Below are positions 48,939 through 52,436 of a DNA stretch of 64,000 bases, one piece after another. Position numbers and translations under genes: made by a program. The stretch is from NCBI RefSeq assembly GCF_054482595.1, contig NZ_CM137008.1, one strand, 5' to 3'. Within the stretch, counting starts at the first letter, position 1. Every line of letters starts with the position of its first letter. The notes beneath the pieces are model-generated. The model made no database searches. It saw only the letters and a program-made list of their open reading frames with translations, and was not told the origin of the DNA.

Positions 48939-51083
48939 TTAAAGTGCACAGGAGACGCAGCCTTCAATTTCAGTGCCTTCCAGCGCCATCTGACGCAGGC
49001 GGATGTAATAGAGCGTTTTGATACCCTTGCGCCAGGCGTAAATCTGCGCTTTGTTGATATCGCGAGTGGTGGCGGTATCGGGGAAAAACAGCGTCAGCGA
49101 CAGCCCCTGATCGACATGGCGAGTCGCTTCCGCGTAGGTGTCGATGATCTTTTCTGCGCCGATTTCGTAAGCGTCCTGATATAGCGCCAGATTTTCGTTA
49201 GTCATAAACGGGGCAGGGTAGTAAACGCGTCCTGTTTTGCCCTCTTTGCGTATCTCTACTTTCGCCACAATCGGATGAATACTCGACGTAGCATGGTTGA
49301 TATAAGAGATAGAACCGGTTGGCGGCACCGCCTGGAGATTCTGGTTGTAAATGCCGTATCGCATCACGTCATCGCGCAGTTGCGCCCACATCTCACGGGT
49401 AGGTAACGTAATACCGCTGCGGGCAAACAGTTCGCCAACTTTCGCCGTTTTCGGCTGCCAGTTACCTTGCAGATATTGGCTGAAATATTCACCACTGGCA
49501 TAGCGTGACTGTTTGAACCCGGCGAAGGTTTGACCGCGTTCGCGCGCCAGCAACATCGAGGTACGCAGTGCGTGCCAGGTGATGGTATAGAAATAGAGAT
49601 TGGTGAAATCCAGTGCTTCCGGCGAACCATAAGCGATGCCTTCCCTCGCCAGATAACCATGTAAATTCATCTGCCCCAGTCCGATGGCGTGCGAGGCGGC
49701 ATTTCCGGCTTCGATGGAGGGCACGCTGCGGATATGACTCATATCTGACACCGCCGTTAAACCGCGTACGGCAGTCTCTACCGTGCGGGCAAAGTCGGGG
49801 GAATCCATGGTGTGGGCAATATTCAACGAACCTAAATTGCAGGAGATATCATGGCCTGTGCGGGCATAGTCGAGATTCTCGTTATACTCTGAGGCGCTGT
49901 TAACCTGCAAAATTTCTGAGCAGAGATTACTCATATTTATGCGCCCGGCGATAGGGTTAGCACGGTTTACCGTGTCTTCATACATGATGTACGGATAGCC
50001 AGACTCAAACTGGATTTCTGCCAGTCGCTGGAAGAAATCACGGGCGTTGAGGTATTTTTTGCGAATGCGTTCATCGGCAACCAGTTCGTCATAGTGTTGG
50101 CTGATGGCCACATCGGCAAACGGCTTGCCATAAACTCGCTCTACGTCATAAGGCGAAAACAGCGCCATCTGCGCATTCTCTTTTGCCAGATGGAAAGTGA
50201 TATCCGGGATCACCACGCCCAGCGACAGTGTTTTAATGCGGATTTTTTCGTCGGCATTTTCCCGTTTCGTGTCGAGAAAACGCAGAATATCGGGATGATG
50301 AGCATGTAAATAGACTGCACCAGCCCCCTGACGAGCGCCGAGTTGGTTGGCATAGGAAAATGCGTCTTCCAGCATTTTCATCACCGGAATTACGCCAGAA
50401 GATTGATTTTCAATACGTTTAATTGGCGCGCCCGCTTCTCGCAGATTCGACAGCAAAAATGCCACGCCGCCGCCGCGTTTCGACAGTTGTAGTGCGGAAT
50501 TTACCGCCCGGCCAATCGACTCCATATTGTCTTCAATACGCAGCAGAAAACAGGAAACCAGTTCGCCGCGCTGCTGCTTACCGCAGTTGAGGAATGTCGG
50601 CGTGGCTGGCTGAAAGCGTCCTGACAGCATCTCATCAGTGAGCTGCGTCGCCAGTGTTTCATCGCCTTGTGCCAGCGTCAGCGCCACCATCGTGACTCGA
50701 TCGGCAAAATCTTCCAGATAACGTTTACCGTCGAATGTCTTCAACGTATAGCTGGTGTAAAACTTCCATGCCCCGAGGAATGTCTGGAAACGAAAACCGC
50801 TGGTGTGTGCGTGGGCAAACAGCGTAATGACAAAGTCGCGAGGGTAGCGATTAAGAACGCTTTCATCATAGTAACCTTCGTTGACCAGCCAGTTCAGGCG
50901 CTGCTGCTGGCTACTGAAGGTCACACTGTTCGGACGCACATGCGTCGCAATAAAGGCGTCAACGGCCTGGCGGTCTTTATCGAACTGAATGCGACCTGCG
51001 CTATCGTAGAGGTTAAGCATCGCATTCAGCGCGTGATAATCCATCGTTTCCTGCGTCAGGCGTTCTGCGGTTGTCGTTGCCAA
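48939..51083 (-). CDS. nrdE: NrdE, class Ib ribonucleotide reductase alpha subunit (714 aa)
   Basis: [27 protein letters not shown]...; RNR large-subunit catalytic motifs including NLCSEI. Confidence 0.95.
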
Positions 51084-51466
51084 AATTCGGTTACTCCTTT
51101 ACGAACGTTTTCGATATCGCTTTGCGTACCCATGAGTTCAAAACGGTACAGCCACGGCACGCCGCATTTCCGGGCAATCACATCTCCGGCGCGGCCATAC
51201 GCCTCACCAAAGTTGCGATTACCCGAAGCAATAACGCCGCGCAGCAATGCCCGGTTATGCTCGTTGTTTAAAAAGCGAATTACCTGTCGTGGCACCGCGC
51301 CAGCCGTACCGCCGCCGCCGTAAGAGGGCACGATCAGGATGTAAGGCTCGTCTACCTGAATCCGTTCCCGCTCATTGAGCGGGATGCGCACCGCGGGCAG
51401 CCCTAAACGTTCGATAAAACGCTGCGTATTTTCGGAGCTGCTGGAGAAGTAGACGAGCTGGCTCAT
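51056..51466 (-). CDS. nrdI: NrdI, flavodoxin-like RNR Ib activation protein (136 aa)
   Basis: [30 protein letters not shown]...; 3' end overlaps the nrdE start by 28 nt. Confidence 0.93.
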
Positions 51467-51708
51467 GCACTGGCCGCGTGTGGCGCTGGATGCAGACGGT
51501 TAATCATGTCCGGACGGAAACCAGACCAGCTAAGATCGCCAGCAATCACTACCGGCAACTGACGAAAGCCCTGAGCACGCAACGCTTCTGCCGCTTCAGG
51601 AACGCGATCGACATTAATCATTTCAAAATCAAAGCCCCGGTTTTCCATCGCCCGTTTGGTGGCGTGGCACTGAACGCAATCGTTACGAGTGTAAATAGTA
51701 ATGCGCAT
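51463..51708 (-). CDS. nrdH: NrdH, glutaredoxin-like redoxin (81 aa)
   Basis: [26 protein letters not shown] with CVQC active site. Confidence 0.95.
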
Positions 51709-51812
51709 GATTCGTATTTCCGTTTAAAATGAAGATACGGCGCGATGATACGCGTCGGGTTGTCTCTCTGTTGATACAGAGATACTAGATGTAGTTGAAA
51801 AAAGATTCAACC

Positions 51813-51828
51813 ACACAATATATAGCAA
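51813..51828 (-). promoter_or_regulatory. Candidate NrdR box upstream of nrdHIEF
   Basis: acacaatatatagcaa matches 13 of 16 positions of the NrdR palindrome as I recall it (acaCwAtATaTwGtgt). Confidence 0.4.
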
Positions 51829-51892
51829 ATAGTGGTCGGAATTACCCTGGATATGAGCGTGACGGGGTAGGGGGATTTGTGTGATTTAAGAG

Positions 51893-51924
51893 GCAAAAAG
51901 AAACCCCGAAAACAGGCTTCGGGG
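51893..51924 (-). terminator. Intrinsic terminator of ygaM
   Basis: Hairpin ccccgaa-aacaggc-ttcgggg with the plus-strand A-run (gaggcaaaaagaaa) providing the minus-strand U-tract just downstream of the ygaM stop. Confidence 0.7.
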
Positions 51925-51955
51925 TCAAAGACGCGTATTTATTATCATTTTTGCA

Positions 51956-52285
51956 CTACGATTTGCGCATGCTTAACAGTGCGCCGATAAAAATACCTAC
52001 CGCAGCTGCTGTACCCACGCTACACCAGGGTCTTTCACGAACAAAAGAATCCGCGCAGCCAACGGCATCGCGTGCGGCTTGCTGGACGCGAGTACGACCA
52101 TGCATTCGCGCCCTGGTTTCTTTCAGCAATGCCTGAGCTTTACTTCGTGCGGCTTCAGCTTCCCCTTTGGCGTCGCTGCCCCAGGACTTCAATACAGATT
52201 CGAGGCTGTCAGCTAATTGATTGACATCATTCTGGATATCCTGCACGCCATCATCAACGTCGTTGCGGTTCGGTCGGTTAAACAT
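51956..52285 (-). CDS. ygaM: YgaM, ElaB/YqjD-family ribosome- and membrane-associated protein (109 aa)
   Basis: MFNRPNRNDVDDGVQDIQNDVNQLADSLESVLKSW... with C-terminal TM anchor; start at ATG 52285 (an in-frame ATG 12 nt upstream is possible). Confidence 0.85.
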   Translation of the reverse strand: MFNRPNRNDVDDGVQDIQNDVNQLADSLESVLKSWGSDAKGEAEAARSKAQALLKETRARMHGRTRVQQAARDAVGCADSFVRERPWCSVGTAAAVGIFIGALLSMRKS

Positions 52286-52436
52286 ATGATCCCCCATTAG
52301 AATTCGATGTAATTTTCAGTGTAGACCATAATTTTCTTAACTGAGGTTCATCGCGGCTTTATGGACTTTTCTGAAAGCGTTGTGAATGCGCAATCAGGTA
52401 AGGTAGGCCCGCGGTTGATAATAACGAGGATCAAAT

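Follow-up and report, generated by a model that had tools for sequence, protein, structure and literature searches.

Repression of ribonucleotide reductase genes by NrdR is a textbook-level circuit, and it has been proposed as an antibacterial target. Among the operons under this control is nrdHIEF, the operon of the class Ib, manganese-dependent ribonucleotide reductase. The nrdHIEF operator of E. coli K-12 was reportedly the subject of earlier work by Rodionov and Gelfand in 2005 and by Torrents in 2007, and the latter study is said to be the source for derepression in vivo in an E. coli nrdR or box mutant.

The nrdHIEF operator is one of three NrdR operators in E. coli and, like those of nrdDG and nrdAB, it consists of two 16-bp boxes separated by a 15-bp linker. 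All three bind NrdR with similar affinity (KD ~100-190 nM with ATP-dATP or ADP-dATP; Rozman Grinberg et al., FEBS J 2025). The box sequences of nrdDG and nrdAB nevertheless differ from those of nrdHIEF, as do the co-regulators, which are FNR and H-NS for nrdDG, DnaA and H-NS for nrdAB, and Fur and IscR for nrdHIEF. In addition, the functional box pair of nrdAB lies downstream of the promoter, unlike that of nrdHIEF. The closest described system outside E. coli is nrdHIEF of Salmonella Typhimurium, which is regulated by both NrdR and Fur (Panosa, 2010), and whose validated Fur box is found at -309, inside a carboxymuconolactone-decarboxylase-family gene. Here, we compare these systems with the nrdHIEF promoter region found in a 64,000-nucleotide stretch of DNA (hereafter, the window).

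Gene context of the nrdHIEF promoter region

The window is E. coli DNA; the 451 bp around the site of interest match many E. coli chromosomes with 100% identity, and RefSeq annotates ygaM and nrdH there. The genes and the terminator that frame the site are as follows.

52297..51956, minus strand: ygaM, upstream of nrdH and in the same orientation (open reading frame list; RefSeq annotation of identical DNA)
51895..51926, minus strand: intrinsic terminator of ygaM (terminator scan: stem-loop 51926..51902 with a 10-pair stem, then the T-run TCTTTTTGCC)
51708..51463, minus strand: nrdH, first gene of nrdHIEF (open reading frame list; RefSeq annotation of identical DNA)
51466..51056, minus strand: nrdI (open reading frame list)
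51083..48939, minus strand: nrdE (open reading frame list)

A preliminary description of this region had placed a 16-mer resembling the NrdR box between the ygaM terminator and nrdH, and this gene context is correct (terminator 51926..51902, nrdH 51708..51463). A search of Rfam over 51400..52100 returned nothing relevant; a single sub-threshold match, to MicA and on the wrong strand, is attributed to chance and overlies a Fur-like 19-mer (discussed below) and the beginning of the ygaM terminator stem.

From box 1 of the NrdR operator to the nrdH ATG, the window is identical base for base to K-12; the few bases that distinguish the two are located upstream of box 1 and in the loop of the ygaM terminator. 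The position and spacing of the box pair are also those of Salmonella Typhimurium nrdHIEF (loci L012 and L025).

A two-box NrdR operator upstream of nrdH

The 16-mer is present as described, ACACAATATATAGCAA on the plus strand at 51813-51828, and it reads TTGCTATATATTGTGT on the gene (minus) strand. Compared with the NrdR consensus ACACWATATATWGTGT, it agrees at 13/16 positions, and no other 16-mer in the 64-kb window comes within three mismatches. The preliminary description regarded it as the single convincing box, and thereby missed a second box, CAACTACATCTAGTAT at 51797..51782, which together with the first forms the best pair in the window. The elements of the operator are listed below, with distances given from the putative transcription start.

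51813..51828, minus strand: NrdR box 1, TTGCTATATATTGTGT, at ~-53..-38; 13/16 to the consensus, single best match in the window
51798..51812, minus strand: 15-bp linker, GGTTGAATCTTTTTT, containing the putative -35 hexamer TTGAAT (51810..51805)
51797..51782, minus strand: NrdR box 2, CAACTACATCTAGTAT, at ~-22..-7; its last six bases, TAGTAT (51787..51782), form the putative -10 hexamer

Read along the gene strand, the layout is ACTAT-TTGCTATATATTGTGT-GGTTGAATCTTTTTT-CAACTACATCTAGTAT-CTCTG, and the pair, which belongs to a ribonucleotide reductase operon promoter, precedes the ATG of nrdH by 73-120 nt. NrdR operators comprise two partially palindromic 16-bp boxes with a linker of 15-16 bp (31-32 bp from centre to centre), and the window has just this arrangement, with its box centres exactly 31 bp apart. 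Box 2 on its own is the poorer match, agreeing with the loose consensus (acaCwAtATaTwgtgt) at only 11 of 16 positions; taken together, the two boxes are the top-scoring pair in the 64-kb window (24/32). Mutational analysis has identified C4, A6, A8, T9, T11, and G13 as the critical positions of a NrdR box (2026 preprint from the group of Rozman Grinberg et al., 2025), and all six are present in both boxes of the window.

One has to consider whether the 16-mer is simply an AT-rich near-palindrome that arose by chance and plays no part in regulation. Indeed, when the window was shuffled with dinucleotide composition preserved, at least one match with three or fewer mismatches arose in 37 of 100 shuffles, so that a 13/16 match to a single box is not, by itself, beyond chance. 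A chance match would not be expected to have a partner box at exactly 31 bp, nor to be retained with that partner in every orthologous region. We searched species-representative genomes with NrdH and obtained 80 loci from more than 20 genera of Enterobacteriaceae, to which the O157:H7 locus and the window were added, giving 82 in total. In 82/82 loci, the linker of the best box pair was 15 bp long and the pair was situated 118-122 nt upstream of the ATG, and the critical positions are near-invariant: all six are kept in box 1 of 78 loci and in box 2 of 81. Within box 1, A6, T7, A8, T9, T11, and G13 are the same in all 82 loci and C4 is found in 78, while positions 1-3, 5, 10, and 15 vary freely; the form of box 1 seen in most other genera is of the TTCCCATATCTTGTAT type. 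Box 2 is the better conserved of the two, with positions 4-16 almost invariant. The linker opens with 6-7 nearly invariant bases (GGTTGAA), after which its sequence is variable. Across the alignment, the block that holds the box pair is the best-conserved part of the 200 nt upstream of nrdH.

Published biochemistry also argues against a chance match. The 57-mer 'nrdEF' probe, which represents the nrdHIEF operator of E. coli K-12 (boxes, linker, and 5-bp flanks; Rozman Grinberg et al., 2025), has a single, fully identical copy in the window (51833..51777, minus strand). Microscale thermophoresis (MST) with purified E. coli NrdR gave a KD of 138 nM for this probe in the presence of ATP and dATP, and of 187 nM with ADP and dATP; with other adenine nucleotides, binding was absent or much weaker (KD >5000 nM) (Rozman Grinberg et al., 2025). 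The 2026 preprint further reports that NrdR does not bind to box 1 or box 2 of nrdEF in isolation, that the G44C substitution in box 2 and the T12G/G13T substitution in box 1 each abolish binding, and that the sequence of the linker has no influence on binding. These binding and mutation data, obtained on a probe identical to the window, refute the idea of a chance near-palindrome, to which we assign a negligible probability.

Based upon its position, its partner box, its conservation, and its identity to an experimentally bound probe, the 16-mer is confirmed as the real upstream half of the already characterised two-box NrdR site in the E. coli nrdHIEF promoter. The NrdR assignment of the preliminary description is therefore borne out, the 16-mer being box 1 of the known operator. 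Its sequence, spacing, and conservation were established here directly, and NrdR binding is taken from the literature on the exact sequence. As the operator was already known, we consider this the rediscovery of a well-characterised site, with no new biology in the NrdR assignment.

Putative promoter and transcription start, and proposed mechanism of repression

According to the literature, the NrdR boxes overlap the site of RNA polymerase. From the sequence, we infer a promoter with a -35 hexamer TTGAAT (51810..51805), a 17-bp spacer, and a -10 hexamer TAGTAT (51787..51782). TAGTAT is invariant at the end of box 2 in the alignment, and the combination TTGAAT-17-TAGTAT scores 8/12, which is under the threshold of the sigma-70 tool. 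The only match that the sigma-70 scan returned, TCAACA-18-TATCAT at 51774..51745, was rejected as the main promoter because its hexamers are not conserved across genera.

Transcription would start near the A at 51775, 7 nt past the -10 hexamer, giving a 67-nt 5′ UTR (51775..51709). A comparison with Salmonella leads to the same position. The Salmonella nrdHIEF Fur box is reported at -309 from the start site (Panosa, 2010), and in Salmonella locus L012 the 19-mer matching this Fur box ends at -376 from the nrdH ATG; the start would thus lie at -67 from the ATG, which is equivalent to 51775 in the window.

Since NrdR binding is independent of linker sequence, the conservation at the beginning of the linker is best explained by the -35 element, and it is also attributable to a second regulator, IscR, whose half-site the literature places over the same hexamer. 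Both Fur and IscR are described as acting on nrdHIEF, and the nrdH -35 hexamer is said in the literature to be embedded in the right half-site of a type II IscR site. In the window, a TGTGG right half-site directly abuts TTGAAT; by eye, we found no convincing left half-site of the symmetrical type II motif (CCxYA) at the expected spacing.

With the -35 hexamer in the linker and the -10 hexamer within box 2, part of the conservation of this block would be driven by the promoter itself, and one could argue that the conserved positions reflect the sigma-70 hexamers only, with NrdR contributing little in vivo at this locus. We consider this very unlikely. Box 1 is upstream of the -35 hexamer, yet its A6, T7, A8, T9, T11, and G13 are invariant in 82/82 loci, and positions 4-10 of box 2, which are upstream of the -10 hexamer, are almost invariant as well. 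Moreover, mutations in the nrdHIEF boxes of Salmonella derepress the operon and raise its transcription up to the level of an nrdR mutant (Panosa, 2010).

We hold with high confidence a reading in which 51775..51833 (minus strand) is the nrdHIEF core promoter together with its NrdR operator, with two boxes and the promoter hexamers, presumably repressed by occlusion and co-regulated by Fur and IscR. In the mechanism we propose, the two boxes, which are three helical turns apart from centre to centre, would span ~-53 to -7, with the -35 hexamer lying within the linker and the -10 hexamer forming the 3′ end of box 2. Given this span, a DNA-bound NrdR tetramer would occlude RNA polymerase, and occlusion is the most likely means of repression. 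When dATP is plentiful, the operon would be repressed in this way; with ATP alone, NrdR assembles into higher oligomers incapable of DNA binding, which frees the promoter. Superimposed on this, the literature describes repression of nrdHIEF by Fur under iron sufficiency and its activation by apo-IscR from a type II site overlapping the -35 hexamer.

The 67-nt 5′ UTR folds no more stably than its shuffles (z -0.37). Two inverted repeats are nevertheless apparent within or near it. The first is a hairpin, GACGCG-TATCAT-CGCGCC (51753..51736, minus strand), which is followed by a U-rich stretch; its G+C arms are conserved in Enterobacteriaceae and its loop is variable, the arms being too conserved to yield a covariation signal. 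The second is a perfect 7-bp inverted repeat, TCTCTGT-ATCA-ACAGAGA (51781..51764, minus strand), which straddles the putative start; it is found in the E. coli alleles and is poorly conserved in other genera.

Two allele classes between ygaM and nrdH

The interval between ygaM and nrdH occurs in two forms in E. coli. In 4033 of the 5421 E. coli genomes that carry the region, it is uninterrupted, as in K-12 and in the window. In the other ~1,390 of 5,421 (about a quarter), including O157:H7 Xuzhou21 and CFT073, two extra genes are found between ygaM and nrdH. The inserted genes are divergently oriented and encode a MocR/PdxR-type regulator and a carboxymuconolactone-decarboxylase-family protein (locus L001, 5905..8010; locus L082, 646..2640).

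The two allele classes become nearly identical from 51823, a position inside NrdR box 1. Box 1 itself has different alleles, TTGCTATATATTGTGT in the K-12 type and TTACCATATCTTGTGT or TTCCCATATCTTGTGT in the O157/CFT073 type; TTGCTATATATTGTGT and TTACCATATCTTGTGT differ at three non-critical positions, and all six critical ones are kept. The window, K-12, and O157 share the same sequence between position 11 of box 1 and the nrdH ATG, and the sole departure of CFT073 in this stretch is one base of the 5′ UTR.

We also noted, at 35-60 nt upstream of box 1, a block rich in C, ATCCCCCTACCCCG, with GCTCAT after it (51862..51875 and 51846..51856, minus strand). The block is common to both E. coli allele classes and is more loosely conserved across genera. 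In several genera, the equivalent region consists of a hairpin with a C-arm and a G-arm followed by a T-run, resembling a terminator for the upstream gene; in the window, the block folds no better than shuffles (z +0.27).

Candidate Fur operators near nrdH

In contrast to the NrdR operator, that of Fur at E. coli nrdHIEF has been located only loosely to date. Counting matches to the plain Fur consensus in the 64-kb window gave 16 sites at 13/19 and one at 14/19; matches at 13/19 are so common that plain counting is uninformative, and we therefore replaced it with a 19-bp matrix derived from 14 strong Fur ChIP-seq peaks of CFT073 (coordinates from Banerjee, 2020). In this calibration set, the distance from the motif centre to the peak maximum had a median of 18 bp and was at most 88 bp. 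Between 51600 and 51990, just three positions exceeded 3 bits (51934..51952, 51703..51721, and 51697..51715), and nothing reached 3 bits between 51722 and 51933, core promoter included. The candidates, along with the site cited in older literature, are listed here; all are given without strand.

51703..51721: GGAAATACGAATCATGCGC, a weak Fur-like match of 7.8 bits at +55..+73, covering the Shine-Dalgarno sequence and ATG of nrdH; the candidate operator with the best support
51697..51715: second Fur match, shifted by 6 bp; 4.9 bits
51934..51952: strongest Fur-matrix match of the region, AAAAATGATAATAAATACG (gene strand); 12.4 bits, 13/19, ~-177..-159 from the putative start
51828..51846: Fur box of earlier literature, GGTAATTCCGACCACTATT, just upstream of box 1; 11/19, <3 bits

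The preliminary description had found no clear Fur box in the interval 51709..51892, and the scan with the ChIP-derived matrix agrees, finding nothing strong inside it; the 7.8-bit candidate at 51703-51721 falls partly within the interval, across its lower end. Canonical Fur operators (among them fepA-fes, fhuF, chuA, and entS) belong to the same 19-bp motif family and also contain overlapping matches shifted by 6 bp, as does the candidate near the ATG. However, their scores range from 12 to 24 bits and they overlap both promoter hexamers (-35 and -10), whereas those near nrdH reach 7.8 bits (at +55..+73) or 12.4 bits (at ~-168). A modest score accords with an earlier information-theory scan, in which the nrdHIEF site had only 10.1 bits, compared with >13 bits for true iron-uptake operons (Chen, 2007).

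Deletion of fur in CFT073 increases nrdHIEF expression 68- to 147-fold, and there is a single Fur peak at this locus, with a height of 849 and its maximum at 3081278, which is 18 bp into nrdH counted from the A of its start codon (3081260) (Banerjee, 2020). The sequence of 51703..51721 is identical in CFT073 and is centred 22 bp from that maximum, the sole one in the region, in data that come from another strain with a different upstream allele and that resolve position only to tens of bp. At 7.8 bits, the candidate is weak, and 26 sites of the 64-kb window have an equal or higher score. Its sequence is nearly invariant in the 82 loci; it overlaps the ribosome-binding site and coding sequence, and its conservation could equally reflect constraints on translation initiation and on the coding sequence. 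No distal Fur site is positionally conserved across genera in the orthologous upstream regions of nrdH. Taking the CFT073 data and the weak motif together, we think it quite possible, if just short of probable, that Fur acts at or near 51697..51721.

Alternatively, in the K-12-type allele the functional Fur operator might be the 12.4-bit site at 51934..51952, acting from ~-168. It is by far the top matrix match near nrdH and one of the top three in the window; its strength is similar to that of the one nrdHIEF site of ~10 bits reported by Chen (2007); and there is a precedent for action at a distance, in that Salmonella Fur represses nrdHIEF from the -309 site (Panosa, 2010). The location of the site argues otherwise, since it comes after the stop codon of ygaM but upstream of the terminator of that gene. 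Likewise, the identical 19-mer in CFT073 follows ygaM at a distance of 2.1 kb from nrdH, where no ChIP peak is listed; in that strain, nrdHIEF is nevertheless strongly repressed by Fur and the peak sits on the nrdH start. A related motif ending in AATAAATACG is also found after ygaM in Trabulsiella (L032, L036, L041), which suggests an element of the ygaM 3′ flank. The motif may thus belong to the 3′ end of ygaM and be unrelated to the control of nrdH. A role for 51934..51952 at nrdH is doubtful, and we regard it as unlikely to be the operator, while giving it some weight.

Older literature favours a third location, in which Fur binds to an element just upstream of box 1, at 51828..51846. An 8-mer Fur box has been cited at this position in both E2348/69 and MG1655 (Cendra, 2012), and it aligns with GGTAATTC in the window; a weak Fur-like, AT-rich sequence also recurs at ~-138 from the ATG in several genera. 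Nevertheless, the element scores <3 bits in the window, and although its CFT073 equivalent reaches 6.3 bits, that sequence is 145 bp from the ChIP peak, past the largest offset of 88 bp in the calibration set. Furthermore, the sequence of 51828..51846 differs between the two E. coli allele classes, even though Fur regulation and binding are reported to be conserved between CFT073 and MG1655. We therefore consider binding at this element improbable.

The Salmonella -309 box was rejected as a candidate for the window. It maps inside the upstream carboxymuconolactone-decarboxylase-family gene, which is absent from the allele of the window, so that the site is unusable here. In Salmonella, it corresponds to a GCTGAAGATAATGTTTATC-like 19-mer within the decarboxylase-family coding sequence (-394..-376 from the nrdH ATG in L012). 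This 19-mer recurs as a degenerate version in many genera (e.g., Citrobacter and Klebsiella), and it is degraded in E. coli O157 and CFT073 (11/19).

Returning to the ATG-proximal site, we tentatively suggest, as a possibility rather than a probability, that a weak, non-canonical operator at 51697..51721 (+55..+79), where the ribosome-binding site and ATG of nrdH are found, serves Fur in the control of nrdHIEF, in place of the upstream sites cited to date and of the Salmonella -309 box.

Implications for the control of nrdHIEF

With regard to NrdR, the biochemistry of one of the E. coli operators has already been performed on the exact sequence found in the window. With regard to Fur, the position of the ChIP-seq peak and the matrix scan jointly point to the translation start of nrdH, and not to the sites that are usually cited. 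If Fur does act there, K-12-type strains, in which all sequence upstream of NrdR box 1 has been replaced and the genes for the MocR-type regulator and the decarboxylase-family protein have been lost, would have kept their iron control, because the operator would lie downstream of the promoter.
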